This document shows, piece by piece, positions 8,635 through 60,298 of a stretch of 64,000 nt of DNA. Numbering within the stretch: position 1 is the stretch's first letter; every line of letters starts with the position of its first letter. The notes below the pieces were generated by a model that saw only the letters and a list, made by a program, of their open reading frames with translations, had not been told where the DNA came from and did not search any database. The position numbers were made by a program, and so were the translations under genes. The stretch is from a virus (taxonomy: Duplodnaviria; Heunggongvirae; Uroviricota; Caudoviricetes): IMG/VR virus record IMGVR_UViG_2681813233_000007; one strand, given 5' to 3'.

Positions 8635-8652
8635 AAGTTAAATTTCTAACAT
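8635..8652 (-). promoter_or_regulatory. Operator-like motif ATGTTAGAAATTTAACTT
   Basis: Member of the dispersed TGTTAGAAA motif family; upstream of the 8825 ORF. Confidence 0.45.
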
Positions 8653-8737
8653 AGTGTATTTATATACACTGTTGATCCTGGTGGATGGGATCGAGTAGGA
8701 TCGCGGTCACTGCTCCGGTAGCGACTGCCAAAAAAGC

Positions 8738-8764
8738 AAAAGCCGCTGAGAAGCGGCTTTTTGG
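8738..8764 (+). terminator. Rho-independent terminator
   Basis: GC hairpin AGCCGC-tgagaa-GCGGCT followed by a T-run after the 7626-8624 ORF. Confidence 0.6.
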
Positions 8765-8824
8765 GTGTATAAATCCACTGCCATAGATTTATACGGTAGA
8801 TAGATTTTTTCACGGAACTATCTG

Positions 8825-9787
8825 GTGAGTATTTTAAATTCAGTTTCAGTAACTTTCAACACTTCTGAGTATAAAAACAACACTGAATACCACAAAAAAA
8901 TCAAAGGTCATCAGTTGAGTTTTTTTGCTCGTCATAGCGGTCTTCTTTCCCCTTCACATAGCGCCATTATTGCCGAGTTCGCCAACCTGGCAGGGTCTAC
9001 CGATGAATACATGATCCGTCGCTCATATGCTGATATGTCCGAGATTACAGGACGCAGCATTTCTACTGTGCGCCGGGCATTTGCTGAAGCGACGAAGTGC
9101 GGAATGCTTGTTAAGCAACATCAGGTAGCGAATAACAATGCCCAGGTGTGTAACGTATATCGGTTTACGACACAATTTCTCCACTTCATTCATGTAGCAA
9201 TGGAGATAGGGGGTAAGCAGGGCATCAAATTTGCCAACGCCACAAAGCTGGTTAAGCAATTGATTTCAAAGGTACGTTATTTTTTTGAAACTGGGACCCC
9301 CCTGTTCAAATTGAACAAGTCCCCCCATGTTCAATTTGAACAGCCAATAGAAAATAAGAGTCACTCTATAGCCAAAAGAAGAGAAAGATCATGCGCGGTT
9401 CAGCCAAAGGCTTCACCAGCAGATAGTTCTCAAGCGGATAATGGGGGACTGGATAAAAAAACAGTAATCAGGGAAGAACATACCAACCACTGCCTGGCGG
9501 CGGCAAAAGCGAGAGCTGCAAAGCGTCGTTCAGACGAGGGGCACGCAAAACGGCAGGCTCTGTATCGTACCGCTGAAAAGCTGGCAAAAAAATTTGCATG
9601 GATACGTAGTGCCGCTACCGCAGTGAATAAGCCTAAACAATCCAGTGCCCTGGATTTCTCAATGGATTATTCTGGCTCCCAGGGGTGTGCAACCATTGGT
9701 GAAGCCTTTGACCTGATGAAACAGCGTGGCTATCTGTCTGAATTTGACCGTGAGGATTGGTCAATCCCTGCGGGATTTAGGGGATGA
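8825..9787 (+). CDS. HTH DNA-binding protein, possible KilA/RepL-region homolog (lytic replicon candidate)
   Basis: 320 aa; HTH-like segment MSEITGRSISTVRRAFAEA; internal inverted palindrome pair at 9304-9343; GTG start uncertain. Confidence 0.35.
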   Translation: MSILNSVSVTFNTSEYKNNTEYHKKIKGHQLSFFARHSGLLSPSHSAIIAEFANLAGSTDEYMIRRSYADMSEITGRSISTVRRAFAEATKCGMLVKQHQVANNNAQVCNVYRFTTQFLHFIHVAMEIGGKQGIKFANATKLVKQLISKVRYFFETGTPLFKLNKSPHVQFEQPIENKSHSIAKRRERSCAVQPKASPADSSQADNGGLDKKTVIREEHTNHCLAAAKARAAKRRSDEGHAKRQALYRTAEKLAKKFAWIRSAATAVNKPKQSSALDFSMDYSGSQGCATIGEAFDLMKQRGYLSEFDREDWSIPAGFRG

Positions 9788-9840
9788 CCTGTGTGTCTAC
9801 AAAACATCCCAATGATCGGAAAATGCTCGCTCGATAATTT

Positions 9841-9858
9841 GTGTTAGAAAATTAATTT
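9841..9858 (+). promoter_or_regulatory. Operator-like motif GTGTTAGAAAATTAATTT with inverted partial partner at 9861-9873
   Basis: Motif family member upstream of the first icd-ant module. Confidence 0.5.
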
Positions 9859-10200
9859 GCTGTTTCTAAATCGGAATGTATGATCTGCATCATCGTCTGA
9901 AGTCATCCATTGCTGAAATTTTTAGTTGATCTTCCATGTTTTCAGGCTTATATTCATGCCGTCGTAGCAAATTCTGCGACCGGGTTTGACAGCCTGAATA
10001 CTTACGCGGACAACCGCACATTTCCGATATTGCGGTATTTTTGTGTCCGTAAAACCACGTTACGCCCGAATTATGGTGGGGCGTGATGGGGAGGCTTCGG
10101 CCTGCTGGTTTCGTAAGTGCCAGTCTGTCAACCCTGTCACGTCCTGCCACCTGTTTGACAGCGGGTCGCAGGTTGTTTATCAACTTACGAGGCCGTAACT

Positions 10201-10425
10201 ATGGTTAATGCCAATCCTTGCTCACGTCCAGAATTCATCTGGCGTTTCCACTCCCTGCAAAAACACTGCGATCACTTCGCAATTGCCGCAACCGAAAAAG
10301 AAGCCCGTTCTCTGATCCCTGATCAGTATGGTGTTCTTACTGGTCGTTTCTCTACTTCCCCACAACCAAACACTAATCCCTGGTATCGCAATATTACCAA
10401 TCCCGGAATTGCGGAGGCACACTGA
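10201..10425 (+). CDS. Icd-like small protein (copy 1)
   Basis: 74 aa, motif EFIWRF(H/Y)S.QKH shared with the paralog at 49445; directly upstream of the Ant-like gene as in P1 immI. Confidence 0.5.
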   Translation: MVNANPCSRPEFIWRFHSLQKHCDHFAIAATEKEARSLIPDQYGVLTGRFSTSPQPNTNPWYRNITNPGIAEAH

Positions 10426-11132: not shown

Positions 11133-11329
11133 TGGACATCATGCAGGCGGTAAAAAAAATCAGGGAAGGACATGCTGAAGTGTGCCGCCGTAAAGCATGG
11201 AGTGTTGGTGTATGGGCCTGGCCTGATAATTACTCTACTACCGGATGGTTTTGTATTAATGGACTCCAGATCCGGGAAGTTGATTTATCGACGGCTGATA
11301 TAGTCGGTAATGATTGGATCGTGACTTGA
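11129..11329 (+). CDS. Small hypothetical protein
   Basis: 66 aa ORF overlapping the ant stop; weak. Confidence 0.25.
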   Translation: MMDIMQAVKKIREGHAEVCRRKAWSVGVWAWPDNYSTTGWFCINGLQIREVDLSTADIVGNDWIVT

Positions 11330-11337
11330 AGCGTGAT

Positions 11338-19306: not shown

Positions 19307-19567
19307 ATGCGAAAGAATCGTAGGTTTACGGTCGAAGACCTAAAGGAATATTCCATATCGAAGGGGTATGTCCTTGAGTTCCACCGATACAAGAAGGTTT
19401 TTACGCTGCGAAAAGCAGAAAACCCCGCGAACTGGAGCTGGGTATACTTTCCTCACACCGATGATAAGTTGGTAGAACTTGTTGATGATTTAACCTATGA
19501 AGGTTGGTTGATCGCAATCGACAAGACAATCAAAGAATTATCCGAACAGGATAAAATAACCCTTTAA
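19307..19567 (+). CDS. Hypothetical protein
   Basis: 86 aa ORF, ATG 3 bp after the upstream stop. Confidence 0.4.
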   Translation: MRKNRRFTVEDLKEYSISKGYVLEFHRYKKVFTLRKAENPANWSWVYFPHTDDKLVELVDDLTYEGWLIAIDKTIKELSEQDKITL

Positions 19568-19703: not shown

Positions 19704-20198
19704 TTGTTGTTATTATTTCGCATATTTACTATCAATAGGTGTGTTAGAAAAATAGCGCGAAAGAGAAGGCGTCGCAGTGAATATTCTGAAACATCCCCAC
19801 ATGCCGCAGCTCTTAGAGAACTGGAGAAAAACCCAGATCTAATCAAAAGGAACCATGAGCATTACGAGCAGGTTCGCGTCCTGGACTGGTTGTATCGCAA
19901 TATGCGTTATGTGTATGAGCATACTCACGCCACTCCAAACGGTGGCCTGCGAGGCATAAGGACGGCAATAAAAATGGTGGCAGAGGGCCAAAAGAAGGGA
20001 TATCCCGATCTTTCTATAGACCTTGCTTGTGGGGGATACCACGGAATGCGCATTGAGATGAAACATGGGAGAAATCGCCTGACTCCCGAACAACTCGTCT
20101 GGATGACCCGCCTCACTGAAGCCGGTTACTACTGCTTTGAGGCGCGCAGTGCCGCTGAAGCCATAAAAGCTATCACGGAGTATGTTTGTCTTGATTAA
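19704..20198 (+). CDS. VRR-NUC-like (PD-(D/E)xK) nuclease domain protein
   Basis: C-terminal GYPDLSI...GGYHGMRIEMK resembles the VRR-NUC signature; track start is TTG, start uncertain. Confidence 0.45.
   Translation: MLLLFRIFTINRCVRKIARKRRRRSEYSETSPHAAALRELEKNPDLIKRNHEHYEQVRVLDWLYRNMRYVYEHTHATPNGGLRGIRTAIKMVAEGQKKGYPDLSIDLACGGYHGMRIEMKHGRNRLTPEQLVWMTRLTEAGYYCFEARSAAEAIKAITEYVCLD
19741..19758 (+). promoter_or_regulatory. Operator-like motif GTGTTAGAAAAATAGCGC
   Basis: Motif family member; lies inside the track ORF 19704, so the true start of that gene is probably downstream. Confidence 0.4.
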
Positions 20199-20715: not shown

Positions 20716-20745
20716 AAAAACCCGCCAATTAGCGGGTTTTTTGTT
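20716..20745 (+). terminator. Rho-independent terminator
   Basis: CCCGC-caatta-GCGGG hairpin followed by TTTTTT. Confidence 0.7.
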
Positions 20746-20783: not shown

Positions 20784-20801
20784 ATGTTAGAAAACTAATT
20801 T
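20784..20801 (+). promoter_or_regulatory. Operator-like motif ATGTTAGAAAACTAATTT
   Basis: Identical 18-mer recurs inverted at 48627-48644; immediately upstream of the 20808 gene. Confidence 0.55.
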
Positions 20802-22032: not shown

Positions 22033-22050
22033 GTGTTAGAAATCTAAAAT
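22033..22050 (+). promoter_or_regulatory. Operator-like motif GTGTTAGAAATCTAAAAT
   Basis: Motif family member at the start of the non-coding/tRNA region. Confidence 0.45.
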
Positions 22051-22188
22051 CACAATTCGAATGTATTGATTGTGGAGATAACTTAACATAGAATTTTCCT
22101 TGCTGGTGGGCAGTACCCACGTTTCGCTTGCTGGGCTTGATAGTCACTTATTGGTTATTGTTTGCCCACCAGCATTTAACAAATTAAA

Positions 22189-22206
22189 GTGTTAGAAAAG
22201 TATGGT
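22189..22206 (+). promoter_or_regulatory. Operator-like motif GTGTTAGAAAAGTATGGT
   Basis: Motif family member 155 bp after the previous one. Confidence 0.4.
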
Positions 22207-23265: not shown

Positions 23266-23342
23266 GATGGTGTAGCTCAGTAGGATAGAGCAGCAGCCTT
23301 CTAAGCTGTCGGTCGGTGGTTCGAATCCATCCACCATCGCCA
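23266..23342 (+). tRNA. tRNA-Arg (anticodon UCU)
   Basis: Cloverleaf by hand: acceptor GATGGTG/CACCATC, D-arm GCTC/GAGC, anticodon loop CTTCTAA, T-loop TTCGAAT, encoded CCA. Confidence 0.75.
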
Positions 23343-23344
23343 AT

Positions 23345-23417
23345 GCCGGTTTAGCTCAGTTGGTAGAGCGCCTGCCTTGTAAGCAGGATGTCAGCGGTTC
23401 GAGTCCGTTAACCGGCA
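23345..23417 (+). tRNA. tRNA-Thr (anticodon UGU)
   Basis: Acceptor GCCGGTT/AACCGGC, D-loop AGTTGGTA, anticodon loop CTTGTAA, T-loop TTCGAGT. Confidence 0.8.
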
Positions 23418-23428
23418 CCGACACAACA

Positions 23429-23502
23429 GGTAAGGGTATTTTGCGACGTCGGAGATCGCCGTGCTTGGCAGAGGGTTCGAATCCCTACGAAGTACCCTTA
23501 CC
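23429..23502 (+). ncRNA. Atypical tRNA-like element (possible degenerate tRNA)
   Basis: Has GGTTCGAATCC T-loop and paired termini GGTAAGGG/CCCTTACC, but D and anticodon arms do not fold canonically by hand. Confidence 0.3.
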
Positions 23503-23649
23503 GTTGTGATGAAGTGCAGCTCTTTGAAGCAACCAGAAGATAAGCATCTGGCTTCACAACATAAACCGCATGAACGACCAATAAACGGTAGTCCGTATGG
23601 AGAACACCCCGTTGAGGAAGAGGCCTGGCCGGAACCGTAACCGGCACTA

Positions 23650-23739
23650 CAACGTTGAGAACACTGGCGTAACGGGGTCATATCCCAATCTATGAATAAA
23701 TGTTGCGTTGCAGCGTGACAACCAGTGTTCTCAACATTG
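23650..23739. repeat. 18-bp inverted repeat (one mismatch) with 54-nt loop
   Basis: CAACGTTGAGAACACTGG at 23650-23667 pairs with CCAGTGTTCTCAACATTG at 23722-23739. Confidence 0.7.
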
Positions 23740-23874
23740 TGGTGAATGCGCAGGCTGATGCGCGAAAGACATTGCAGCTATTGCGGAAAAGAGCTGTTCG
23801 GCGGGGCAATTAAACGCCCGTGAGAGTCTGAAATAACCGCAAGCCGGAGATCAGCACCGGTCGCCACAATCAGC

Positions 23875-23961
23875 GGAGAGTAGGGGGCATGGTGCTCAAG
23901 CGGTCTTGAAAACCGTCCCATTGCGCAAGCGATGATGGTTCGATTCCATTACTCTCCGCCA
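23875..23961 (+). tRNA. Long-variable-arm tRNA-like gene, Ser-like (anticodon UGA), atypical D-arm
   Basis: Acceptor GGAGAGT/ACTCTCC, anticodon arm GCGGT-CTTGAAA-ACCGT, T-arm GATGG-TTCGATT-CCATT, encoded CCA; D-stem weak. Confidence 0.45.
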
Positions 23962-24211
23962 TCGCAACGTTAAGAGTATTTGGCTAATTAAGCGAATGCC
24001 GGAAGCAGAACCGGATCATCAAATGCGTACAGGCGTCATCGCCGCCCAGCCAGCCAAGTGCTCTTACCATTGCGGTGAATGCGGCTAAGCGCACGCGGAA
24101 CAGTTAAAACAATCCTCCTTAGTGGTTAAGTCAAACATCCCGGCGTTAATTGTTAACTGGTTAACGTCACCTGGAGGCACCAGGCACCGCAATCTAATAA
24201 AGTTTCAAGCA

Positions 24212-24445
24212 ATGGGGTTTTTGTTGTCAGACTTCAGATATAGATGGTTGTGGAAGGAGAGCCTGTACATAGTGCAGTTATTTCTTCCGCTATTTGTCTG
24301 CTTTGTCATGCTTCCTGAGCTGAAATACGCAATTTCAGACACTTTAAGCACTATCGTTACTTTTGTGTTTTATCTTTACTTTGATTACTTATTGAGCACT
24401 AAAATCAATGAATTATCCGCGGAAATGCAAGGTGGCTGTAAGTGA
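24212..24445 (+). CDS. Small hydrophobic membrane protein (hypothetical)
   Basis: 78 aa from ATG at 24212, in an AT-rich patch; highly hydrophobic. Confidence 0.3.
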   Translation: MGFLLSDFRYRWLWKESLYIVQLFLPLFVCFVMLPELKYAISDTLSTIVTFVFYLYFDYLLSTKINELSAEMQGGCK

Positions 24446-24573
24446 TGGATTTTTGGGCGTTTGCCGATAAGAACCCTGGTTGGACATTTTTATTTTTGCT
24501 GGTGGTTGCATATGGGGTAGAGCAAGCGGCTAAAGCCTTACGCGGTTCTGGCAAAAAGCGTAAGCGGAATTAA
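24445..24573 (+). CDS. 42-aa peptide with a TM segment and basic C-terminus (hypothetical)
   Basis: ATG overlaps the upstream stop (ATGA); MDFWAF...GWTFLFLLVVAYGV...KKRKRN; below the ORF-track size cutoff. Confidence 0.3.
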   Translation: MDFWAFADKNPGWTFLFLLVVAYGVEQAAKALRGSGKKRKRN

Positions 24574-24582
24574 CAGTAATCT

Positions 24583-24658
24583 GGCCCTTTAGCTCAGTGG
24601 TTAGAGCAGGCGACTCATAATCGCACGGTCACCGGTTCAAATCCGGTAGGGGCCACCA
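24583..24658 (+). tRNA. tRNA-Ile2 type (anticodon CAU, lysidine-type AUA reader) or tRNA-Met
   Basis: Near-identical to the E. coli ileX-type sequence as I recall it; anticodon loop CTCATAA, encoded CCA. Confidence 0.8.
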
Positions 24659-25688: not shown

Positions 25689-26080
25689 TGTACGGGACTA
25701 CCAAATTAAGCACTCAACAGGCCACCAATATGGAGTGGTCTATCGCTAACTGTAAGATCGTGTCATGCAATGCCACGCGTACTGATGTGGGCCATAAAAG
25801 CACTATAACAGGCTATCTAGTAATGACCACCAGGGGGATGAGGGTTAGATTTCGCTGGAAAGCAGAGCAAGTAACGCCATTCAGAGAGCCATCAATGCCG
25901 CTGCAGGTTGAGCAGGATTATCTATGTTTACCAGAAATAGATGGAGGAATGCTGGTGGAGTCTGATGGTAGTAAGGCTGATTTTGAAGCCAATTTGAAGC
26001 TGGCACAGGCCGTAATCAATAGTTATCGCGGAAAGTGGATCGCAAAAGTGAAACATGTTGTTCGTTTGTCTCGCTGGTAG
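25688..26080 (+). CDS. Hypothetical protein
   Basis: 130 aa; ATG overlaps the upstream stop. Confidence 0.4.
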   Translation: MYGTTKLSTQQATNMEWSIANCKIVSCNATRTDVGHKSTITGYLVMTTRGMRVRFRWKAEQVTPFREPSMPLQVEQDYLCLPEIDGGMLVESDGSKADFEANLKLAQAVINSYRGKWIAKVKHVVRLSRW

Positions 26081-26094
26081 CGTTAGATATTTAA

Positions 26095-26111
26095 TATTAA
26101 TTTTCTAATAT
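26095..26111 (-). promoter_or_regulatory. Variant operator-like motif ATATTAGAAAATTAATA
   Basis: T instead of G at position 3 of the core; upstream of the Lpa-like gene. Confidence 0.3.
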
Positions 26112-26188
26112 AATCATCTTTTTACCAGTCTATACAGTTTTAACATTCTCATTATCATCCCCTCGGTCATTTCCTGCCCGGGGGATTA

Positions 26189-26581
26189 ATGGAACAAATC
26201 AGCAGCGCAGAAATTGCGGATATCATGATCAGGGCTGACTGCTATCTGACAGTCACTGAAATTACCACTCTCGCCAAAGAAAAATACCCTCATCTCCATG
26301 TTTCACGAGTAAGTGTAACTAACATCATTCGTCATTTTGTTCGTTCAAGCAGGGCAATCTGTGAGCTGGATGATCGTGTGTATCCACGAAAATACTGGCT
26401 ACATGGTCTGAACGGATATCAGTTCAAGGTGCGCGGGCGCACGCCTGAATACGGTAGCTTACTGGTTAAAAACTGTAGCAGGAAATCAGTCGAACAGGCG
26501 CGAAAAGAGCAACGAGAGCTGGTGGACATGGCGAATAAGCTGTGGAATGCCGCCGTTAAAAAGCGTGGTGTTGCTTTATGA
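26189..26581 (+). CDS. Putative late-gene activator (Lpa-like by position)
   Basis: 130 aa, immediately upstream of pacA-like as lpa is in P1; stop overlaps the pacA start. Confidence 0.35.
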   Translation: MEQISSAEIADIMIRADCYLTVTEITTLAKEKYPHLHVSRVSVTNIIRHFVRSSRAICELDDRVYPRKYWLHGLNGYQFKVRGRTPEYGSLLVKNCSRKSVEQARKEQRELVDMANKLWNAAVKKRGVAL

Positions 26582-27942: not shown

Positions 27943-29450
27943 TGGCTGGAGGGCGCAAGATTAAATGCGTCACCAGCGATCCACGCTGGCGCGATATGGT
28001 AATCAAATACCGCTACAACTTTACCCAGGCTGTTGTCGATATTTTTGGGATGTTCCCCTCCCACCAGCAGCAGCAGATCATTCAGTCCGTGCAGGAAACG
28101 GGGAGTAGGACGACCGTCACGTCCGGACACGGAACGGGGAAGTCGTCCCTTACCGCGATGTTGCTGTTGATTTTCATGATCCTGTTCCCCGATGCCCGTG
28201 TCATCATTGTTGCTAACAAGATAGGCCAGGTAAAAACAGGCGTATTCAAATACGTTAAACAGTATTGGGCGAATGCAGTTAAGCGTCATGGGTGGTTGCA
28301 GACCTATTTTGTCCTCTCTGACACCATGTTTTATGAGCGCTCCCGTAAGGGGATTTGGGAAGTTCTCTGCAAAGGTTATCGACTCGGCAACGAAGAAGCG
28401 CTGGCGGGGGAACACGCGGCACATTTGCTTCTAATTCTGGATGAAGCATCTGGTATATCTGATAAGGCGATCGGCGTAATGACCGGTGCTCTTACTGAAG
28501 AAGATAACCGGATGTTGATGCTATCCCAGCCAACAAGGCCAAGTGGTTATTTTTACGATTCGCACCATTCTCAAGCAAAAACCCCAGACAACCCGAAAGG
28601 GATCTGGACAGCAATTGTTCTTAACTCGGAAGAATCACCGTTCGTCACACCACAATTCATCAAGCAGAAGCTTCTGGAATATGGGGGGCGCGATTCTATT
28701 GAGTACATGGTCAAGGTGCTTGGTCAGTTCCCACGAGAAATTAACGGCTATTTGCTTGGTCGTGATGAATGCGATCGCGCTGCTCGCCGCAAGGTGCTGT
28801 TGGAGAAAAACTGGGGATGGGTGGCAACGGCTGACGTTGGTAATGGGCGAGATAAGTCGGTCCTCAACATCTGCAAGGTATCTGGTCACAGGGATAAGCG
28901 GCGCGTTGTTAACTTTAAGGTAATGGAGATGCCTGGCACTATGGACCCATTGGCCTTTGCTGACTTCATATATAACGAATGTACGCCGGAAAAATACCCG
29001 AATATAACAATCGCGGTTGATGCTGATGGTTTTGGTTCTGATACGTGTGCGCAGTTGGTGCGTCGTGGTGCGAACCCGGTACGTATTCGGTGGGGAAAAC
29101 CCATGTTTGCGAACAAAGACAGGGAGCGATTTGTTAATCAGCGTGCCTACGCAAATATTATGGCGCGAGATGCCATAAAGTCAGGGCGTATGCGGATAGA
29201 CAGTGACCCTAAAACGGCAGAGCAAGCGTCAAAAATCCCCTTTTTACTGAATGAAGAAGGGAAAATGGCGATGATGCGCAAAGAGCACATGCGGCAAAAG
29301 CTAAACATCAAATCGCCTGACCGATGGGATACCTACTGCTTCACTATGCTGGTGGACTATGTGCCTGCTAATGAAGATATTGGTGCCGAAATGGCAACTT
29401 TCCGAGATCAGGTTCTGGCGGATATCGAAATGCCGGATCTGGATATATAA
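27942..29450 (+). CDS. pacB: Terminase large subunit (PacB-like)
   Basis: 502 aa; Walker A SGHGTGKSS, Walker B LLLILDEAS. Confidence 0.8.
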   Translation: MAGGRKIKCVTSDPRWRDMVIKYRYNFTQAVVDIFGMFPSHQQQQIIQSVQETGSRTTVTSGHGTGKSSLTAMLLLIFMILFPDARVIIVANKIGQVKTGVFKYVKQYWANAVKRHGWLQTYFVLSDTMFYERSRKGIWEVLCKGYRLGNEEALAGEHAAHLLLILDEASGISDKAIGVMTGALTEEDNRMLMLSQPTRPSGYFYDSHHSQAKTPDNPKGIWTAIVLNSEESPFVTPQFIKQKLLEYGGRDSIEYMVKVLGQFPREINGYLLGRDECDRAARRKVLLEKNWGWVATADVGNGRDKSVLNICKVSGHRDKRRVVNFKVMEMPGTMDPLAFADFIYNECTPEKYPNITIAVDADGFGSDTCAQLVRRGANPVRIRWGKPMFANKDRERFVNQRAYANIMARDAIKSGRMRIDSDPKTAEQASKIPFLLNEEGKMAMMRKEHMRQKLNIKSPDRWDTYCFTMLVDYVPANEDIGAEMATFRDQVLADIEMPDLDI

Positions 29451-29451
29451 A

Positions 29452-29468
29452 GCCCCGCGATGCGGGGC
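29452..29468. terminator. Bidirectional terminator-like hairpin GCCCCGC-GAT-GCGGGGC
   Basis: Perfect GC stem between convergent pacB and the c1-like gene; weak T-run. Confidence 0.45.
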
Positions 29469-29477
29469 CGGTTGTGA

Positions 29478-30515
29478 TTACCAGAGCTTCGCGGCGTACT
29501 GCGTTTGGGGGAATGTGTATCCGTAACGTTCTTCGATTGCTTTGCCGTATTTTTTACGAGCTTCATTCAGTTTAATGCCGGTCAGGTCGTCTCCAGAGGC
29601 CATCATTACGTCTAACAATTCCAGATCCATTTTATCCAGCCTTGCCATTGCTTCACGTGATGTACGTATCTTACGTTCAATGATATGGCGAATAGCCGGA
29701 TCGGCATCCTCCAGCATCTTAGCGGATTTCTGCTTAAGGCTTTCATTGCGAATATCGATGTTCCTTAAGATGTACGACTTCGCAACGTAGCTTGGCTGGT
29801 GTTTTTCCAGGTCACGAACACGATATAAGTTAAAATCGCCGAGAAGGCTGCAAGGTACCGATTCGACGCCAGAATAAATTGTAATGCTCCGGCGTTCACC
29901 AACATTATTGACAACGGGGATCGTTGTCTTCGGTAGTCTTGCGAAAACCAATGCGCCATGTGCGCCAACTCTAAAGCGAGAAAGGGCATTGCTGCCTTCG
30001 ATGTTTGTTGTCAGCACAACATCTGTATATGCCTCTTTACGCGCCCGGTAGATCTCGCCTTCAGGCTCAGCTTCAAAGAAGCGCTGTTCTTCTTCAAGAG
30101 CACCTACGATTTGAGAAAAAACCCTATTTTTCAGGCTTTTCTTTATGATTTTGTCGTATTTTTTTAGCAATTGTTCACGTGTAAATGTACGTGTTGTTGT
30201 AGCGCTTTGCACAACGACATGCGTGCTTTGATTGGTGTCCTCAATGATGAATGGGATCGGAGAATATACAGACTCAACAATGTTCGACGCTTTGCCGTCG
30301 GCATCGCGGCACATGTCAACGAAGGCTTTCCATTCAGCAAGACATTTTTCAGCTTCTTCTAATATGTTTTGGTCATGCGTTAATGCAACATGGCGGAATT
30401 CCTCGCCAGCATAACTGGTATCATGGAAAACAGAGTTTGCGACCACCAGCTCTTTCCACCGTTCAGCGGTTTGCAGGAACCGTTTGTACTCTTTCTCGAT
30501 CGACTTCTTACTCAT
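29478..30515 (-). CDS. Putative primary repressor (C1-like, by position)
   Basis: 345 aa, convergent with pacB and next to the lox-type site as c1 is in P1; operator-like motif 12 bp upstream of its start. Confidence 0.4.
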   Translation of the reverse strand: MSKKSIEKEYKRFLQTAERWKELVVANSVFHDTSYAGEEFRHVALTHDQNILEEAEKCLAEWKAFVDMCRDADGKASNIVESVYSPIPFIIEDTNQSTHVVVQSATTTRTFTREQLLKKYDKIIKKSLKNRVFSQIVGALEEEQRFFEAEPEGEIYRARKEAYTDVVLTTNIEGSNALSRFRVGAHGALVFARLPKTTIPVVNNVGERRSITIYSGVESVPCSLLGDFNLYRVRDLEKHQPSYVAKSYILRNIDIRNESLKQKSAKMLEDADPAIRHIIERKIRTSREAMARLDKMDLELLDVMMASGDDLTGIKLNEARKKYGKAIEERYGYTFPQTQYAAKLW

Positions 30516-30526
30516 TATTCCTACTC

Positions 30527-30544
30527 GATTTAGTTTTCTAACAT
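30527..30544 (-). promoter_or_regulatory. Operator-like motif ATGTTAGAAAACTAAATC at the c1-like start
   Basis: Motif family member overlapping the presumed promoter/RBS of the c1-like gene, suggesting autoregulation. Confidence 0.5.
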
Positions 30545-30725
30545 AAAATTACTATGACAAATTTATGTCGAATAACAGAGTGAGTAAAGGATCGAACTGT
30601 GATTTTTTGTCATCAATTTTAGAAAACCAACCGTAGAAACCACACTTCGCAAATTAAAGACCATGAAGGCAACGTGTTACTGGTCATCATCAATCTATGA
30701 TGGATTTAAAAAAATCGGCATTTTA

Positions 30726-30757
30726 TAACTTTAAATAATTGGCATTATTTAAAGTTA
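30726..30757. other. rox recombination site (14-bp inverted repeats, 4-bp spacer)
   Basis: TAACTTTAAATAAT-TGGC-ATTATTTAAAGTTA; reverse complement of the rox sequence as I recall it; 150 bp upstream of the Cre-like gene. Confidence 0.85.
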
Positions 30758-30909
30758 GGCTATAATCATGTGTAGATGAACAGTGTTGACATCACTGAAA
30801 ATACGTGCCTCGAATCAAAGGCTTGTATTTTGAAAATTAACTTATAGCTACCCTGTCATTTTTATATTTTTCGCGTAGCGTCATCTGTATATAGAGGTGT
30901 AATAGTTTC

Positions 30910-31938
30910 ATGAGTGAATTAATTATCTCTGGCAGTTCCGGTGGTTTTCTGCGCAACATTGGCAAAGAGTACCAGGAAGCCGCAGAAAACTTTATGCGGT
31001 TCATGAATGACCAGGGGGCTTATGCGCCGAATACTCTGCGCGACCTCCGGTTGGTGTTTCATTCCTGGGCGCGCTGGTGTCACGCTCGCCAGCTTGCCTG
31101 GTTTCCGATCTCACCAGAAATGGCCCGCGAGTATTTTCTTCAGCTGCATGATGCCGATCTGGCTTCGACCACCATTGATAAGCACTACGCCATGCTGAAC
31201 ATGCTGCTTTCGCATTGTGGCCTTCCGCCACTTTCGGATGATAAAAGTGTTTCTCTGGCTATGCGGCGCATCCGGCGCGAAGCGGCAACTGAAAAAGGCG
31301 AACGAACAGGCCAGGCTATACCGCTTCGGTGGGACGATCTGAAACTGCTCGACGTCCTGTTGTCCAGGTCAGAACGGCTGGTGGACCTGCGCAACCTGGC
31401 TTTTCTCTTTGTTGCATACAATACGCTGATGCGTATGTCGGAAATATCGCGTATTCGTGTAGGTGATCTGGACCAAACAGGTGACACTGTCACGCTACAT
31501 ATTTCACACACGAAGACAATAACGACCGCCGCCGGGCTTGATAAGGTGCTTTCCCGTCGCACTACCGCTGTGCTGAATGACTGGCTGGATGTTTCCGGGC
31601 TTCGCGAGCATCCTGACGCTGTGCTGTTCCCGCCGATACACCGTAGCAATAAGGCCAGGATCACGATAACGCCCCTTACTGCACCTGCAATGGAGAAAAT
31701 ATTCAGCGACGCCTGGGTGTTGCTGAATAAAAGAGATGCTACGCCAAACAAAGGAAGATACCGGACGTGGACCGGGCATAGTGCACGCGTCGGGGCCGCT
31801 ATTGATATGGCTGAAAAGCAGGTGTCTATGGTGGAGATCATGCAGGAAGGAACCTGGAAGAAACCGGAAACACTTATGCGGTATCTTCGCCGTGGCGGCG
31901 TGTCTGTGGGGGCTAATAGCCGCCTGATGGATTTGTAA
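30910..31938 (+). CDS. dre: Tyrosine site-specific recombinase Dre (Cre family)
   Basis: 342 aa; collinear with Cre (WFP..PE, SVSLAMRRIRRE, IRNLAFL..YNTL.R..EI.RIRV.D, W.GHSARVGAA.DMA). Confidence 0.9.
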   Translation: MSELIISGSSGGFLRNIGKEYQEAAENFMRFMNDQGAYAPNTLRDLRLVFHSWARWCHARQLAWFPISPEMAREYFLQLHDADLASTTIDKHYAMLNMLLSHCGLPPLSDDKSVSLAMRRIRREAATEKGERTGQAIPLRWDDLKLLDVLLSRSERLVDLRNLAFLFVAYNTLMRMSEISRIRVGDLDQTGDTVTLHISHTKTITTAAGLDKVLSRRTTAVLNDWLDVSGLREHPDAVLFPPIHRSNKARITITPLTAPAMEKIFSDAWVLLNKRDATPNKGRYRTWTGHSARVGAAIDMAEKQVSMVEIMQEGTWKKPETLMRYLRRGGVSVGANSRLMDL

Positions 31939-31955
31939 ATTAAATTTCTAACACA
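31938..31955 (-). promoter_or_regulatory. Operator-like motif GTGTTAGAAATTTAATTT
   Basis: Motif family member immediately after the dre stop, upstream of the 32012 operon. Confidence 0.5.
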
Positions 31956-32011
31956 TCTTTTTAGATTAACATCTTTGCTGTAAAGTACCCTCGCCTATTT
32001 AGGAGGGTGCT

Positions 32012-32356
32012 TTGCAGAGTCAAATCACGGAATCAAGACGCTTCAAGGTGGATGGTTACACCGTAACCTTCGCCGCTGGTGTTAAGAACAGTCATGCTGT
32101 CGTTGTGTTCGGCATCATGACCGGGCTTGAGGCCGTCCCTGTGTTTACCCTCGAAAAAAACTGGCGAAATCTGGAGGAAGCAGAAAGCTACGTCCGGAAA
32201 GTAACCATCATTGCCGCCGAAAAACTCCTGGCCCACTATCAGGAAAATTATCGCACTATGGTCGAGAAGATTAATCTCGCTTTCACTCGCCCCACTACCG
32301 GCTTTATTGCACCGGATACTAATGCAGGTCGATATCCTGCAAGGGGGCGTCGGTGA
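32012..32356 (+). CDS. Hypothetical protein
   Basis: 114 aa, first gene of a tightly coupled 6-gene operon. Confidence 0.4.
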   Translation: MQSQITESRRFKVDGYTVTFAAGVKNSHAVVVFGIMTGLEAVPVFTLEKNWRNLEEAESYVRKVTIIAAEKLLAHYQENYRTMVEKINLAFTRPTTGFIAPDTNAGRYPARGRR

Positions 32357-32829
32357 AAACTTATTACCCATCTCTGAATTGTTACCCGTCTTCCTATCCA
32401 GAATTATCCGGGAAGCTGTTAGCTCTATTAGCTAAAGCACCTACGGAATGGTTTAAGCCAGTCGTTATCAATCCACACTTCCTGGATTACGGAACTGTTC
32501 GCACTCGTAACGAACTCAAAAACCTACTGGCGCATGGATTCATTCGACACCGTGCCGGGAAAGGCTATCAGTTAGCGATTGCGCCAGAAGAGGCCGTGCG
32601 GCTATTCGCATATCGTGACAGCCAGACAAAAGCTCGGGTAATAGCTCAAATACTTCATAACGGCAGCACCTATGCCCGCCAGTTTGGCGGCGACACGTCG
32701 CAGTTCTTGCGGGCGGTGCGATCGCTGGAGGAGCAAGGAGTTATTGAAAGTTCCTGTCTTCCTGTTCCTACCGTTCCACATATCAAACGTCGGGTTTACA
32801 CCTTCACGCAGAGAGCTAAAAAACAATGA
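32353..32829 (+). CDS. Hypothetical protein, possible winged-helix
   Basis: 158 aa; 4-bp overlap with the upstream ORF. Confidence 0.4.
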   Translation: MKTYYPSLNCYPSSYPELSGKLLALLAKAPTEWFKPVVINPHFLDYGTVRTRNELKNLLAHGFIRHRAGKGYQLAIAPEEAVRLFAYRDSQTKARVIAQILHNGSTYARQFGGDTSQFLRAVRSLEEQGVIESSCLPVPTVPHIKRRVYTFTQRAKKQ

Positions 32830-33320
32830 TTTACGTAAAAGTGAAACGCCTACATCCGGCAGCAAAACTTCCAGCTTATGCCACCTCCGGATCGGCGGCG
32901 ATGGATTTTGAGGCTGTTGAAATAAAACCATGCGTCGATAGCAATGGTGCAATTTCCTCAAGCTGGTGGGTGTACACCGGACTGGCTATGGAGATCCCGC
33001 CCGGCTGGTGTCTGAAACTCTATCCGCGCTCCGGATTGGGCTGCAAAAAACATACTCGCCTGGCTAACTGCGTAGGAATTATCGACTCCGATTATCGCGG
33101 TGAAATCATGGCAAAACTGATTACTGATCCCGGCGGGGAAGGCGTTTGTCTCAAGCCTGGAATGGCTGTCATGCAAGGCATTTTTGAGCGTGTTGAACAA
33201 GTCTCACTAGTCGAGGTTGAGGAACTCAACGAAACGGAACGTGGTGCTGGTGGCTTTGGTAGCACATCGGAAGACCACTTTGAAATCAAGCGCACACCGC
33301 TTCAGTACGCAAAGTTTTAA
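32826..33320 (+). CDS. dut: dUTPase (trimeric dUTP diphosphatase family)
   Basis: Motifs PRSGLG, GIIDSDYRGE and C-terminal RGAGGFGSTS. Confidence 0.75.
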   Translation: MIYVKVKRLHPAAKLPAYATSGSAAMDFEAVEIKPCVDSNGAISSSWWVYTGLAMEIPPGWCLKLYPRSGLGCKKHTRLANCVGIIDSDYRGEIMAKLITDPGGEGVCLKPGMAVMQGIFERVEQVSLVEVEELNETERGAGGFGSTSEDHFEIKRTPLQYAKF

Positions 33321-33334
33321 GCAGAGGAAAGGCT

Positions 33335-34036
33335 ATGAATTACATGACAACGAAAGAGCTTTTTAAGTTCCTTCCCAAATACAAAGCTCACAAAAACGTT
33401 AGTGCATCGAAAATCAAAAATGTTGTTATTTTCGGAGTAACTGCTTCCCCACTTTGGGGCTGCATCGAACTCGTTGAACCAAAAGGGGCAACAGTTTGTG
33501 TTGACGCAATTTTTTTACAAAAACACCGACCAAAAACTGGCGGGTATCTGATCGTTTATGAAAACGGTTATCTGTTCTATGCCCCGGAGAAACCATTTGA
33601 GCAATGCTATGGCCTGGTTAACGACGCCTCCGAAAATGGGGTATCGCTCAGCATTGAAGGTCACAATGGGGTGACATTCATTACAGCCAGGGACGTAACT
33701 ATTTCTGCTGGCGGTATCGCTACTCTACAAGAAGAAATCGACCTTGAAGCAGCCGACTTTTCTGACGCGCTGATGTGGCTGAAGGATGGCAAGAAAGTTG
33801 CTCGACGCGGGTGGAACGGCGAAAACCAATTCTGCTGGCTGGTTCCTGACAAACAGGGTGCTTCAAGACTAACCCCTATAAAACATGCCGCAAACGGAGA
33901 GCTTGAAATCAATTTCGACTCTCCTCTTGCTCCTTATGGTGCGCATTTCGTTTTGAAAAATGCACAAGGTGTAGTTGTTCCATGGATGCCTTCTGTAGGT
34001 GACCTGCTGGCATGTGACTGGTTTGTAGTGGAGTGA
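33335..34036 (+). CDS. Two-domain protein with C-terminal DUF2829 (Tad2-like) domain
   Basis: C-terminal ~90 aa ALMWLKDGKKVARRGWNG...VPWMPSVGDLLACDWFVVE fits the DUF2829 pattern as I recall it; N-terminal ~140 aa unknown. Confidence 0.5.
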   Translation: MNYMTTKELFKFLPKYKAHKNVSASKIKNVVIFGVTASPLWGCIELVEPKGATVCVDAIFLQKHRPKTGGYLIVYENGYLFYAPEKPFEQCYGLVNDASENGVSLSIEGHNGVTFITARDVTISAGGIATLQEEIDLEAADFSDALMWLKDGKKVARRGWNGENQFCWLVPDKQGASRLTPIKHAANGELEINFDSPLAPYGAHFVLKNAQGVVVPWMPSVGDLLACDWFVVE

Positions 34037-47975: not shown

Positions 47976-47993
47976 GTGTTAGAAAATCAATTT
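47976..47993 (+). promoter_or_regulatory. Operator-like motif GTGTTAGAAAATCAATTT with inverted partner at about 47995-48010
   Basis: Divergent promoter region between the leftward 47809 operon and ref. Confidence 0.55.
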
Positions 47994-48054
47994 TGAATAT
48001 CTAACCATTTTGATCAATCATAGAAAAATCGCTGAAAAGTAAGAGGCAGCCATC

Positions 48055-48633
48055 ATGCAGAAACAGAGCTACTGGGAGAAACAGAGACAAAAAGCCATGC
48101 AAAGATTGGCTGACCCGGCCTGGCGAGAGGAACAAAGGGCAAAGCGCCTTCAACAAGCTCAACGCCAGCAGCAGCGAGCGAGAGAAAAAGCCGCATCGCC
48201 TGAATATCGGCAAAAGAGAATTGAAAAAGCAAAGCAATATGACCAGCGGAGAAAAGAGAAAGCTGTATCCGCTCCGTCCAAAAAAACACGCACGTCACGC
48301 GGCCTGAAGGGCAGATCACTCACAGCCGATGAACGCCGGATACAGACCGCTATCGGTACTCTCCCCTGCATTGCCTGCCATATTCACGGGCAACATAGCC
48401 CAGTGGTATCCCTGCACCATATCTTCGGGAGAACGGCAGAGAACGCGCATAAATATGTCCTCCCTTTGTGTAAATGGCACCACCAGTACGCAGCGCCAGC
48501 CGAGGTCCGAGAACAATATCCCTGGCTGGTCCCTGTTCATGCTGATGGAAAAATAGGCGGAAAAGCAGATTTCATACGGCACAATGCCGATGAAATGGCG
48601 TTGTATCAGATGGCAATTGAATTGATAAATTAG
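48055..48633 (+). CDS. ref: Ref recombination enhancement function (HNH endonuclease)
   Basis: 192 aa; C-terminal half near-identical to P1 Ref as I recall it (LPCIAC..H...VSLHHI.GRTA...PLC.WHHQ.AAPAEVRE.YPWLVPVHADG). Confidence 0.85.
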   Translation: MQKQSYWEKQRQKAMQRLADPAWREEQRAKRLQQAQRQQQRAREKAASPEYRQKRIEKAKQYDQRRKEKAVSAPSKKTRTSRGLKGRSLTADERRIQTAIGTLPCIACHIHGQHSPVVSLHHIFGRTAENAHKYVLPLCKWHHQYAAPAEVREQYPWLVPVHADGKIGGKADFIRHNADEMALYQMAIELIN

Positions 48634-48644
48634 TTTTCTAACAT
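48627..48644 (-). promoter_or_regulatory. Operator-like motif ATGTTAGAAAACTAATTT
   Basis: Identical 18-mer to 20784-20801; downstream of ref, upstream of the second icd-ant leader. Confidence 0.5.
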
Positions 48645-49133: not shown

Positions 49134-49237
49134 ATACTGACTGTTGCGCCCTGGCATTATCGTGGGGTATATTTCTACGGCACCTTAGAAAAACGGGTGC
49201 CGGGATTGGAACCCCGGATAATGTCAAAGGCGACACA

Positions 49238-49259
49238 GACGCCGAAAGCGTCTTTTTTT
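49238..49259 (+). terminator. Rho-independent terminator
   Basis: GACGC-cgaaa-GCGTC followed by TTTTTTT. Confidence 0.7.
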
Positions 49260-49444
49260 GTGTCATGCCATCGCACAGCCATACGTAGCGTTTAGCTCAG
49301 AGATCAATGGTAGTGCTGGCTGGGCTGCCGAAAGGCAGGCCGGTTCCCTTTGACGCCGGTAGTTCCAACCCAGTCAGTGCTACCGCCATTGAGATTGGAA
49401 CCTCACGCGGTAGCTCCTTAACTTAGTCAAAGGAGGCTGCCAAT

Positions 49445-52366: not shown

Positions 52367-52649
52367 TGCACCGTTCCTTCATGCAATCAAAATGACTTTT
52401 ATGTTATAAAAATAATCAGCCAAATCAACATGATTTAGGCCAAATTTCTGTCAAAAAATAAAATCCACAAAAAGTGGTTGACACTATTTTGGAAATCACA
52501 AACTGCACATAATCCATCGCGCTAACGGCTCCCGTTGAAGGTTCTTTTGACGATTAACTTTCAGCCGAAGCGCGGTAGGGAGTCATAACGCCAAAGCAGG
52601 CCGCCATGTGCGGCCTTTTTTTGTATCCGTCATCCGTGGAGGAAGGACA

Positions 52650-56526: not shown

Positions 56527-56596
56527 TTTTTGCCCTTACTAGCGTGCGTATTAAGTGGACTCTGGTCAGAACCCGGTCCGTAACCGGGTATCTGTT

Positions 56597-57853: not shown

Positions 57854-58617
57854 CTTCAAATAAAACCCTCCTGGCGCGAACAGGTGAATGGCAAACCTCA
57901 CGCACAGGAAAATTCCAGACCACGGGCTTTGAAAACGTGGATAACGCGTTTGCGACGCTAATCAGCAACATTTTTTCTGATATCTTACTGGTGGCCCCCG
58001 CGCCGGAAGAAAAACGCTTTGCGTCATTCCTGAATCGTCCACCAGCAGAGCGTGTCTATGTGGCCCGTTTCGACAATGCGATCGAGTTTCTTAAAGCAGT
58101 TCGTCGCGCAAATGCCGGGCAAGGGAGAAAACCTGAAAACCAGAACATTAACCGGGATGCTCTCCCCCTGGTCAATATCTCACGCACTATGGATATCAAT
58201 TATATCAACGATGATCAGCAGATTGACCGCAAAAAAGTAGCCAGTTTTTGCGAACCGGATACCGGAATGCCTTTAGCAGAACTGGAATACACCCAGGCCA
58301 TTCTGACGTATGACGTTACGTTAATGGCAACTGATAAAGCGACCATGAGTCTGATGTGTAATTCGCTGGGCGCACGGCTTCGCCTGATGACAGGTACACA
58401 ATTTGAAGCAACCACTCACCTTGTTCGTGTCCCGGTCCCGCTGATTTGCTCGATACAGGATGCCAAAGAAGTCGGCTTTACGGATGTTTCAGCACCAATT
58501 GGAGAAGAGCGTATTTATGCCACACAAGCGCCGATAAGTGTGATTGCAGACGTGATCACAACATGGGAGTTGGACGCAAAACGTATTATTACCGAAACCT
58601 CGATATCTATGGGGTGA
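57850..58617 (+). CDS. Hypothetical baseplate/tail-assembly protein
   Basis: 255 aa, coupled. Confidence 0.4.
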   Translation: MTSNKTLLARTGEWQTSRTGKFQTTGFENVDNAFATLISNIFSDILLVAPAPEEKRFASFLNRPPAERVYVARFDNAIEFLKAVRRANAGQGRKPENQNINRDALPLVNISRTMDINYINDDQQIDRKKVASFCEPDTGMPLAELEYTQAILTYDVTLMATDKATMSLMCNSLGARLRLMTGTQFEATTHLVRVPVPLICSIQDAKEVGFTDVSAPIGEERIYATQAPISVIADVITTWELDAKRIITETSISMG

Positions 58618-58620
58618 TAA

Positions 58621-59601
58621 GTGGCCCAGGAGTTACAACAATATTTTCTACAGTCAGTGCTCATTAACGATAACAAAGTGCCACGAGACTGGATTTTTAC
58701 CGCAGTATATGTAGAAAAAACCAGCCTCAAAGCCCCTTTGCTAAAACTGGAAATTCATGACGCTACCGGCACCGTAATTGATGACTGGAAAGCCAAATAC
58801 GGTGCATCGCTGGTGGCTGAAATGGGCGATCCAAACGGTAATGCAGGCACTTTTAAAACAGATTTCTTTGTTACGTCTGCAATGCTGGCTGGTGATGTTG
58901 TTACCGTTATTGCTGTCAGTGAAGACGTGCGCAGGTTTAAGATCCCCTCCCCGCGCACAAATTTACATACCAACAAAACACCAGACGCTATATTCAAGGC
59001 ATATTCCGGCAAACTTAAAATTACCAGCAGCGTGCTAAAACGCGCAGTTACATATCATCTGAATGCCGGTGACAAACCGTCAAAAATGCTTTCTGAGATA
59101 GCGCGAGACAAAGGTGCATTGTGTTGGGTATGTCGGGGGGAATTTAACTTTTACACCCTGGCTGATCTGATGAAGCAAACGCCATCATTTACCTACGAGG
59201 GGAATAACCCTAAAGCAGAATACACTTTGTCAAAAATGCGCCTACTCCAACAGGAACATGCGACAACAGCAAAGAATCAATATCGTTTTGTTGGGTATTC
59301 CATGACCGATGGCTACGTCGAATATGGCGATAGCTCACTCCCAGTGCGTTATATATCCGACTCTGATATGGAAACTCTTCGCAATATGCAGCTGTCTCTC
59401 GTCCCCAAAATGGATATAGAAGTCGCAGGCAATCCTGATATAAAACCGGGGATGGTGATAGAGATTATCGTATACCGCTATGACCAGGAAAACCGCATTG
59501 ATGAATCAATGCCCCGTAAGCTGATAGTAAAAAATGTTGCGCACTTTGAAGACCGCGTAGGCTACACAACACGAATGATATTGGGAGTGCCGAACAAATG
59601 A
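58621..59601 (+). CDS. Hypothetical baseplate/tail-assembly protein
   Basis: 326 aa, coupled. Confidence 0.4.
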   Translation: MAQELQQYFLQSVLINDNKVPRDWIFTAVYVEKTSLKAPLLKLEIHDATGTVIDDWKAKYGASLVAEMGDPNGNAGTFKTDFFVTSAMLAGDVVTVIAVSEDVRRFKIPSPRTNLHTNKTPDAIFKAYSGKLKITSSVLKRAVTYHLNAGDKPSKMLSEIARDKGALCWVCRGEFNFYTLADLMKQTPSFTYEGNNPKAEYTLSKMRLLQQEHATTAKNQYRFVGYSMTDGYVEYGDSSLPVRYISDSDMETLRNMQLSLVPKMDIEVAGNPDIKPGMVIEIIVYRYDQENRIDESMPRKLIVKNVAHFEDRVGYTTRMILGVPNK

Positions 59602-60251
59602 AGCGTAGAGCGCAAATTGTTGGAACTGTGCACCCGGCAGGGCTTATGCGTGCTCAAGTCCGTGTTTTACCTGACTGGAATGGCGTTCCTGATGACGATC
59701 TACCCTGGGCGGAATACCTGTTACCCATCGGAAACGCTTTTGTACCCACAGTCAAAGGTGACCTGGTTTGGGTAGAGTTTCCTTATTTAGATGTTAACGG
59801 TCGAATAGACACCAGACGCCCAATGATAGTTGGTGCCGCTCAGGATGCACCGGGAGGAATTCCAAACGTTGCACCAGAAGCATCTGGCAAAGGCAACGGC
59901 TGGACGCCGCCGGAAGTAGATGGAGCACCTCCCCGCCCCCAAATCTCAGCAACGAAAGACTTCGTTATTCACCGCAACAATATTCTTGAAGTACGAACTG
60001 CTGGTGGCGGCTATGAAATTGCCAATACGGCAGCAGGCTCAAGGATTGGCATGAATGAGTCCGGGCAGATATATATCATTGGTCCGGCTGATGTAATCGT
60101 GAATGCAGGAGGGAGTGTTAACGTCAAATCAGCCAACAACATCAATGTTAAAGGGGAAAATATTGCTGTCACCGCTAACGGAGACATAGCTTTCAAGGCA
60201 GGAGGAACCTTTCAGGCCACTGCTAGCAACTTCGATTTCAAGAAAGGATAG
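59598..60251 (+). CDS. Baseplate central spike (gpV/gp45-like)
   Basis: N-terminal OB-fold-like segment (VGTV...VRV...W..P.VGD.VWV) and C-terminal beta-helical repeats (GGSVNVKSANNINVKGENIAVTANG). Confidence 0.55.
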   Translation: MKRRAQIVGTVHPAGLMRAQVRVLPDWNGVPDDDLPWAEYLLPIGNAFVPTVKGDLVWVEFPYLDVNGRIDTRRPMIVGAAQDAPGGIPNVAPEASGKGNGWTPPEVDGAPPRPQISATKDFVIHRNNILEVRTAGGGYEIANTAAGSRIGMNESGQIYIIGPADVIVNAGGSVNVKSANNINVKGENIAVTANGDIAFKAGGTFQATASNFDFKKG

Positions 60252-60266
60252 AAAATGCACCAGTTT

Positions 60267-60298
60267 GTGTTAGATAATTAATATGTATTTTCTAACAC
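60267..60298. promoter_or_regulatory. Overlapping inverted pair of operator-like motifs
   Basis: GTGTTAGATAATTAATAT on plus and GTGTTAGAAAATACATAT on minus, just upstream of rdgC-dmt. Confidence 0.55.

Follow-up and report, generated by a model that had tools for sequence, protein, structure and literature searches.

The 64,000-nucleotide stretch of DNA analysed here (hereafter the window) is, judged by the annotation of phage D6 and by tblastn searches with P1 proteins, a D6-like plasmid prophage (phage-plasmid) of the P1 family, and its intergenic regions carry a dispersed, asymmetric 18-bp motif. Very probably, these motifs serve as operators for the D6-type C1 repressor, which would act as the element's master switch for lysogeny; binding is predicted from sequence comparison. 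The sites lie at places orthologous to the C1 operators of P1, differ from them in sequence and include one immediately upstream of the c1 gene itself.

A dispersed motif with single and double sites

The 18-bp site has the form RTGTTAGAAAAYTAATTT, with the consensus R-T-G-T-T-A-G-A-A-A-(A/T)-(T/C)-T-A-A-(T/A)-(T/A)-T, in which positions 2–10 hardly vary and an A/T-rich tail is conserved less strictly. Exact copies of the core TGTTAGAAA number 12 in the window against an expectation of 0.73, and none of 100 dinucleotide shuffles matched that number. Allowing up to two mismatches, the 18-mer RTGTTAGAAAWNTAAWTT was found 11 times against 0.12 expected. An 18-column position weight matrix (PWM) run over the whole window yielded 15 half-sites of at least 17 bits compared with a mean of 0.09 (maximum 2) in 300 first-order Markov simulations, an enrichment that is partly circular because the matrix was trained on the same sites. 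Motif-blind ranking of 8-mers dispersed over non-coding segments placed GTTAGAAA/TGTTAGAA first in the window, and GTTAGAAA was also top-ranked in a relative by a motif-blind 8-mer count.

An earlier sequence-only reading of this DNA had proposed at least 14 copies lying almost exclusively between genes, and all 14 of its coordinates are correct. The intergenic bias is equally clear: the non-coding share of the window (outside open reading frames (ORFs) of at least 60 aa) amounts to 9.9% and holds 10 of the 12 exact cores (binomial P = 4.9e-9). The remaining two are at 19741, within the first codons of the pmgM-like ORF provided that its TTG start is real, and at 22189, in a stretch that has no annotated coding sequence in D6. 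It is extremely unlikely that the copies are non-regulatory, that is, recombination or packaging sites, remnants of mobile elements or chance A/T-rich similarities. Chance is excluded by the core, 8-mer and PWM statistics; the copies are single, dispersed over more than 50 kb and placed at gene starts; and the core is invariant while its intergenic surroundings fall to ~60% identity among relatives. A search of the flanks of the copies found no conserved sequence beyond the 18 bp.

The predicted operators fall into 13 loci, eight single and five double. At each double site, two 9-bp cores face each other in inverted orientation exactly 12 bp apart (cores from 9842, 26081, 43498, 47977 and 60268), and this spacing accounts for 5 of the 9 such inverted core pairs with spacings of 0–30 bp. 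The inverted second copies that had been proposed at distances of 8–12 bp are thus borne out and sharpened to a single distance at five loci. Locus 26095 also belongs to a pair, since an inverted core pair with a 12-bp gap was found there. A double site measures 32 bp overall and 21 bp from centre to centre, so the two cores would lie on the same face of the helix. The predicted sites, the weaker candidates and the c1 gene are as follows, with corresponding P1 operators or positions named last.

8635–8652 (−): single predicted operator in the interval between pro and the RepL-like lytic replication gene (8825–9787), 25.1 bits; P1 OrepL
9841–9872 (+): double predicted operator (core-N12-core), Oc4-like, upstream of c4-a1b1/C4 RNA/icd/Rha-type antirepressor (immI module 1); P1 Oc4
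19741–19758 (+): single predicted operator at the 5' end of the pmgM-like gene, 17.8 bits; P1 O26 (O26/Op82 position)
20784–20801 (+): single predicted operator in the pmgR-like/pmgS-like interval, 28.3 bits; P1 OpmgRa/b (OpmgR/Op86 position)
22033–22050 (+): single predicted operator just past the pmgS stop, at the head of the tRNA/tciA-B operon, 25.2 bits; P1 Obanab (Oban position)
22189–22206 (+): single predicted operator, the second in the tRNA/tci leader, 19.3 bits; P1 Obanab
26080–26111 (+): double predicted operator (core-N12-core) upstream of lpa, the late promoter activator gene; P1 Olpa (Olpa/Op94 position)
29478–30515 (−): c1 gene, D6-type C1 repressor of 345 aa, presumed binder of the motif
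30527–30544 (−): single predicted operator, c1-proximal and Oc1-like, ATGTTAGAAAACTAAATC, 24.6 bits
30616–30633 (+): tentative weak distal c1 operator, inverted, with one core mismatch, ATTTTAGAAAACCAACCG
31937–31954 (−): single predicted operator at the stop codon of dre, ahead of the orf117-orf116-dut operon, 27.4 bits
43497–43528 (+): double predicted operator (core-N12-core) in the ppp/pdcB-like interval, leftward early operon
47976–48007 (+): double predicted operator (core-N12-core) in the region from which ref and the leftward early operon diverge; P1 Oref
48627–48644 (−): single predicted operator overlapping the 3' end and stop codon of ref, 28.3 bits; P1 Omat
52401–52418 (+): tentative weak candidate upstream of mat, 9.8 bits
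60267–60298 (+): double predicted operator (core-N12-core) upstream of hrdC-dmt; P1 Odmt (Odmt/Op68 position)

Two of these entries are held back from the set of 13. The 30616 candidate lies ~90 bp upstream of the proximal c1 operator and is tentative because it scores below the PWM threshold, and the 52401 candidate is likewise only tentative because 9.8 bits falls in the background range (1–9 matches per shuffle at that threshold). The latter is kept in D6, and P1 has a mat operator.

Correspondence with the P1 C1 regulon

The presumed binder is 100% identical to the C1 protein of D6. Its gene stands in the order pacA, pacB, c1 (−), rox, dre, as in the immC region of P1, and 12 bp separate the single site at 30527 from the c1 start codon downstream of it, which fits autoregulation. 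The relationship to P1 C1 was recovered by hhalign (probability 95.6%, E = 1.2e-8 over 227 columns), by tblastn (E = 5e-6) and by a match to NCBIfam phage_rep_C1 (E = 9e-6). In addition, the family PF27008 ('Phage_P7_repressor_C1') is recorded both on homologues of the D6-type C1 and on P1-type C1s; the query itself had no match in the local Pfam copy. By these profile and sequence comparisons, the D6-type and P1 repressors are members of one family, yet not the same protein, given the low NCBIfam score. D6-type C1 is 345 aa long and carries an additional helical region at its C-terminus; P1 C1 is 283 aa long. An exhaustive profile search of 1.8 billion proteins returned just 83 clusters of the family (50% identity), and a word-indexed search added one sequence. 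These clusters have a common core of ~245 residues, to which the D6-type proteins add ~100 C-terminal helical residues. No helix-turn-helix domain was detected in C1.

P1 carries 22 dispersed asymmetric 17-bp C1 operators with the consensus ATTGCTCTAATAAATTT (PMC8546580). Its GenBank record (AF234172.1) annotates 'phage repressor C1' binding sites, and the window sites occupy orthologous places, with flanking genes checked by tblastn and Rfam; the proposal that the motif mirrors the P1 C1 regulon is therefore supported. Shared with the P1/P7 system are the homologous PF27008 repressor encoded beside pacAB and a Cre-type recombinase gene, the many dispersed asymmetric sites of ~17–18 bp in single and double form (inverted, with overlapping A/T tails), and the loci concerned, namely c1, c4-icd-ant, repL, ref, the 3' end of ref, lpa, hrdC-dmt, the tRNA/tci (ban-type) operon, pmgR/S and pmgM. 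At the protein level, tblastn identities to P1 are 29% for the RepL-like gene product, 57% for the pmgM-like one, 55% for ref, 54% for hrdC and 85% for dmt. When the c4 region is aligned with P1, the promoter, targets and RNA are ~95% conserved and the operator segment has been exchanged; P1 Olpa falls at the position of the lpa double site; and 48627 can be aligned column by column with Omat of P1, the two being oppositely oriented. None of the window sites is a counterpart of the ssb, rlf and pmgT operators of P1. We also noted that P1 Omat (AF234172.1, 2628–2645) is annotated on the minus strand while its operator consensus reads on the plus strand (cATGCACTAATAAATAT), which looks like a slip in the record.

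The two systems differ in several details. The operator is 18 bp long in the window and 17 bp in P1, and a double site spans 32 bp rather than 28 bp. Double sites make up 5 of the 13 loci in the window, whereas the P1 record has at least one divalent operator, Obanab, among the features listed ahead of the c1/coi region; Obanab consists of two 17-mers overlapping at their A/T tails and thus parallels the double sites seen here. The window has two C4-icd-ant modules with Rha-type antirepressors, and P1 has one, with Ant1/2.

As had been proposed, the operator sequence itself is unlike that of P1, and the two words are mutually exclusive between the genomes. With up to three mismatches, the P1 consensus matches 17 times in P1, never in the window and never in D6 (GenBank MF356679.1 / AY753669.1), which argues for a specificity class other than P1 immunity; TGTTAGAAA is present in 12 exact copies in the window, 12 in D6 and none in P1. 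Every window site is present at the orthologous place in D6. Together with the identity of the two C1 proteins and the finding that the motif follows the C1 clade, this upholds the suggested D6-type immunity specificity. Because its operator sequence differs from the P1 consensus, the element should be heteroimmune to P1. Our results support viewing the operator set as that of a heteroimmune representative of the P1 C1 system, which is well known. In the D6 GenBank records, rox and cix sites are annotated and operators are not; full-text literature searches, with the D6 genome paper outside their scope, returned no description of the motif or of D6-like C1 operators, which may nevertheless have been described before. 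A TTAGA sub-core is common to the reverse complement of the P1 operator and to the D6 and Leclercia motifs (the latter described below). We do not take this sub-core as a sign of homology, since P1 and D6 have their A/T tail and double-site geometry on opposite sides.

The genes downstream of the sites were largely as the sequence-only reading had them. Sites precede c1, ref, the dmt operon, lpa, the icd-ant modules and the RepL-like gene, and no KilA homologue was found by tblastn for the gene that had been called KilA/RepL-like. The link to the second icd-ant module holds in the sense that 48627 lies upstream of it, followed by orf86-orf85-isrK-C4-icd-ant, although ~550 bp separate the site from the isrK and C4 RNAs. 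Rfam placed these at 49180–49258 (isrK) and 49303–49390 (C4), and, in the first module, c4-a1b1 at 9948–10000 and C4 RNA at 10069–10154, ~105 bp downstream of the 9841 site. Downstream C4 RNAs are likewise a feature of P1. Each immI-type module comprises an RNA element (c4-a1b1 in module 1, isrK-like in module 2) with a C4 antisense RNA, followed by icd and a Rha-type antirepressor gene of its own.

Binding of the motif by another phage regulator, such as Lpa or a Rha-type antirepressor, is quite unlikely. All phage-encoded proteins diverge along with C1 in distant relatives, so co-variation with the motif is not unique to C1, and the D6-type Lpa is just 31% identical to P1 Lpa (tblastn). Nevertheless, sites are found ahead of c1, c4-icd-ant, ref, repL, dmt and lpa itself, all of them early or immunity genes that C1 represses in P1, and the c1-proximal site fits autoregulation by C1. 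They coincide with the C1 operators and not the late promoters of P1. Unlike what would be expected of late promoters, the large structural operons (lydA-darA, prt-pro, pacA, genes 26/25 and 7/24/6/5) have no upstream site, and the window shows no enrichment of the P1 late box (AAGTGACT..TANNNT).

Several observations weigh against C1 as the binder of these sites. The protein is only ~20% identical to P1 C1, and its NCBIfam score of 25 bits compares with an equivalog cut-off of 500 bits. The orientation of sites relative to the downstream gene differs from P1, for example at 8635 and 48627. A strict sigma-70 scan of four regions found promoter-like sites no more often than in shuffles and none overlapping a predicted operator, and in a lenient scan just 8-of-12 matches overlapped the sites. 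Similarity to Lxc (Bof) was found neither by tblastn nor by BLASTP, no coi-sized ORF lies between c1 and rox, and no Coi homologue was found; the circuit therefore probably differs from that of P1, although analogues dissimilar in sequence may exist. Finally, the comparison with a Leclercia plasmid (see below) cannot isolate C1 as the binder because the whole genome changes along with C1. Given this co-divergence, the case for C1 over another phage protein comes chiefly from the precedent of P1 and from the presence of a site at c1.

In P1, lxc encodes a co-repressor of C1. An 86-aa ORF at 19307–19567 (+; phrog_6844) lies directly after darB-ulx, the place of lxc in P1; without sequence similarity to Lxc, it may be an Lxc analogue.

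Probable operator specificity classes in related phage-plasmids

Over region 28000–34000, the window shares 100% identity with E. coli plasmid pRHB39-C21_3 (CP057047.1) and 97–99% with phage D6. D6-like phage-plasmids occur frequently in E. coli, Salmonella and Shigella: a near-full-length C1 homologue is present in 147 PLSDB plasmids, 78 of them with at least 95% identity. C1 variants were found at about 90, 80, 70, 68, 51, 48, 44, 30, 29 and 24% identity. For comparison of operators we used plasmid NZ_CP091837 (C1 68% identical; cores counted in 41 kb), two metagenomic contigs (51% and 44%) and the Leclercia adecarboxylata plasmid pE1_003 (NZ_CP042508.1; 30%).

Relatives with C1 at 68, 51 and 44% identity retain the same core at orthologous places. 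NZ_CP091837 has 14 exact cores in its 41 kb, including perfect palindromes TGTTAGAAA-N12-TTTCTAACA, which stand at the places of the 43497 and 47976 double sites. In alignments of the c1- and lpa-upstream regions, mean identity is 57–62%. Upstream of c1 (C1 at 100, 68, 51 and 44% identity), TGTTAGAAAA is the only long invariant block, and the tentative 30616 candidate aligns with a full-core inverted site in both metagenomic contigs. Upstream of lpa, the double architecture is preserved in NZ_CP091837 and both contigs. Among the single sites, 22189 and 31937 are kept in D6, NZ_CP091837 and one of the metagenomic contigs; 19741, whose 3' half is poor, in D6 and NZ_CP091837; and 8635, as a variant, in D6. 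Both arms of the 60267 site are strong (25.3 and 22.1 bits), and a weak promoter-like match lies inside the 43497 site.

No TGTTAGAAA is present in Leclercia pE1_003. Instead, the word sCCTTAGAATCTAttGTa (CCTTAGAATCT) is found there at four orthologous positions: at the recombinase stop (31937 in the window), upstream of c1, after the pmgS-like stop (22033) and upstream of the pmgM-like gene (19741). Its copies, at 4068, 8086, 9477, 19211, 24324 and 26980 of the plasmid, are dispersed and intergenic, and they probably represent a third C1 specificity class as judged by their placement. The classes at fixed positions would then be ATTGCTCTAAT in P1, TGTTAGAAA in D6 and CCTTAGAATCT in Leclercia. 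Another candidate for the Leclercia motif, GTGATCAC, was dropped in favour of CCTTAGAATCT, as part of its occurrences fall within coding sequence and they group around parM.

These comparisons also bear on whether the motif could be the site of a host factor, or an unusual promoter element common to these intergenic regions. In favour of this, the motif is rich in A and T, with a tail similar to −10 hexamers. Still, this explanation is very improbable, since unrelated words occupy the same positions in P1 and the Leclercia plasmid, which have the same host family, and the use of either strand relative to the downstream gene, together with the palindromic pairs, is unlike a promoter element. 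In a scan of one representative genome per species (185,579 species), no Enterobacterales were among the first 80 of the 81 stretches matching the perfect double site; as these matches are unrelated, the scan says little beyond arguing against a host factor. The palindrome TGTTAGAAA-N12-TTTCTAACA recurs in many Sphingomonadaceae (Sphingomonas, Sphingopyxis, Novosphingobium and Erythrobacter), where it is presumably an unrelated conserved regulatory palindrome.

We infer binding, repression and promoter occlusion by C1 as follows. The protein encoded at 29478–30515 would bind the asymmetric 18-bp site through an invariant core and a variable A/T-rich tail, and would occupy ~13 dispersed promoter or leader regions, eight through single and five through double sites. 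Occupancy would block transcription of c1 itself, of both C4-icd-antirepressor modules, of the lytic replication gene and of ref, and also of lpa, the hrdC-dmt operon, the tRNA/tci operon, pmgM, pmgS and two early operons.

By the D6 annotation and P1 tblastn, the genes of the window comprise prt, pro, the repL-like gene, icd, ant, darB, ulx, pmgM and pmgR/S; further along, the tRNA cluster, lpa, pacAB, c1, rox/dre, phd-doc, ppp and ref; and in the last part the second icd-ant module, mat, tail genes and hrdC-dmt. A terminator-like hairpin (20716–20741) precedes the 20784 site, and a promoter-like site (22066–22094, TTGATT-17-TAGAAT) lies 16 bp downstream of the 22033 site. In the leader downstream of 22033, Rfam found only tRNAs. 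The tRNA cluster (23266–24658, all +) lies downstream of 22033 and 22189. ARAGORN called Arg-TCT, Thr-TGT, Ser-TGA and one tRNA with a CAT anticodon, which may be of the Ile2 type as in P1; the D6 record labels the homologues Asn, Thr and Ser. Chi sites (GCTGGTGG) number 43 in the window (26 +, 17 −) against ~1.7 expected from a first-order Markov model, with examples at 22102 (+) and 22166 (−), and the enrichment recurs in related loci. A GC-rich inverted repeat at 26158–26190 (CCCCTCGG...CCCGGGGG) overlaps the lpa ribosome-binding site and is kept, with sequence changes, in the relatives with 68, 51 and 44% C1 identity; it may form a translational-control hairpin. A near-consensus sigma-70 promoter (30739–30766, +; TTGGCA-16-TATAAT, 11/12) overlaps rox upstream of dre.

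A possible Tus-like fold of C1 and its implications

P1 C1 reportedly binds its asymmetric operators in monomeric form. Tus, the replication terminus protein of E. coli, likewise acts as a monomer on the asymmetric 23-bp Ter site. Querying Foldseek with a predicted model of the D6-type C1 (predicted template modelling score (pTM) 0.46) gave four significant matches, all of them Tus (E from 7e-7 to 2e-5), the next match having E = 0.05. A model of a P1-type C1 (predicted local distance difference test score 79.1, pTM 0.55) matched Tus alone (E about 3e-8 to 1e-7, TM-score 0.40–0.47; next E = 0.2), and it is not a fully independent replicate because its alignment included D6-type sequences. Across both moderate-confidence models, TM-scores to Tus were 0.32–0.47. 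No sequence signal between C1 and Tus was found by hhalign (probability 0.2%) or by hmmsearch against the PDB, and our literature search found no paper linking the two.

From these models, it is conceivable, if on balance somewhat doubtful, that the PF27008 C1 repressors are Tus-fold proteins, in which a monomeric clamp for asymmetric DNA serves as a phage master repressor. We offer this tentatively because the TM-scores lie below 0.5 and model confidence is moderate. Like C1, Tus recognizes asymmetric sites of ~20 bp; the function of Tus-Ter is fork arrest, whereas that of C1 is transcriptional repression. The TerB core GTATGTTGTAACTAAAG, verified beside tus, contains ATGTT-N4-CTAA, and the D6-type operator contains ATGTT-N6-CTAA, a spacing different by 2 bp; the resemblance may be a coincidence. 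If true, a Tus fold would provide the first structural rationale for the reading of asymmetric sites by C1, and would explain both the asymmetry of the operators and the undetected helix-turn-helix domain.

A C1 operator set is expected biology for this phage family, useful for annotation and no surprise to a specialist. It provides an operator consensus and a regulon map for the D6-type immunity group, which could be used in annotation and in predicting heteroimmunity between co-resident P1-like plasmids. The Dre/rox recombination system came from D6, and orthogonal repressor/operator pairs might be used alongside it. With respect to evolution, the comparison of P1-, D6- and Leclercia-type elements suggests that dispersed operators are swapped as a set while their positions stay fixed; were C1 a Tus-fold protein, its specificity classes would have split by re-tuning of the clamp, with the positions of the operators in the genome unchanged.

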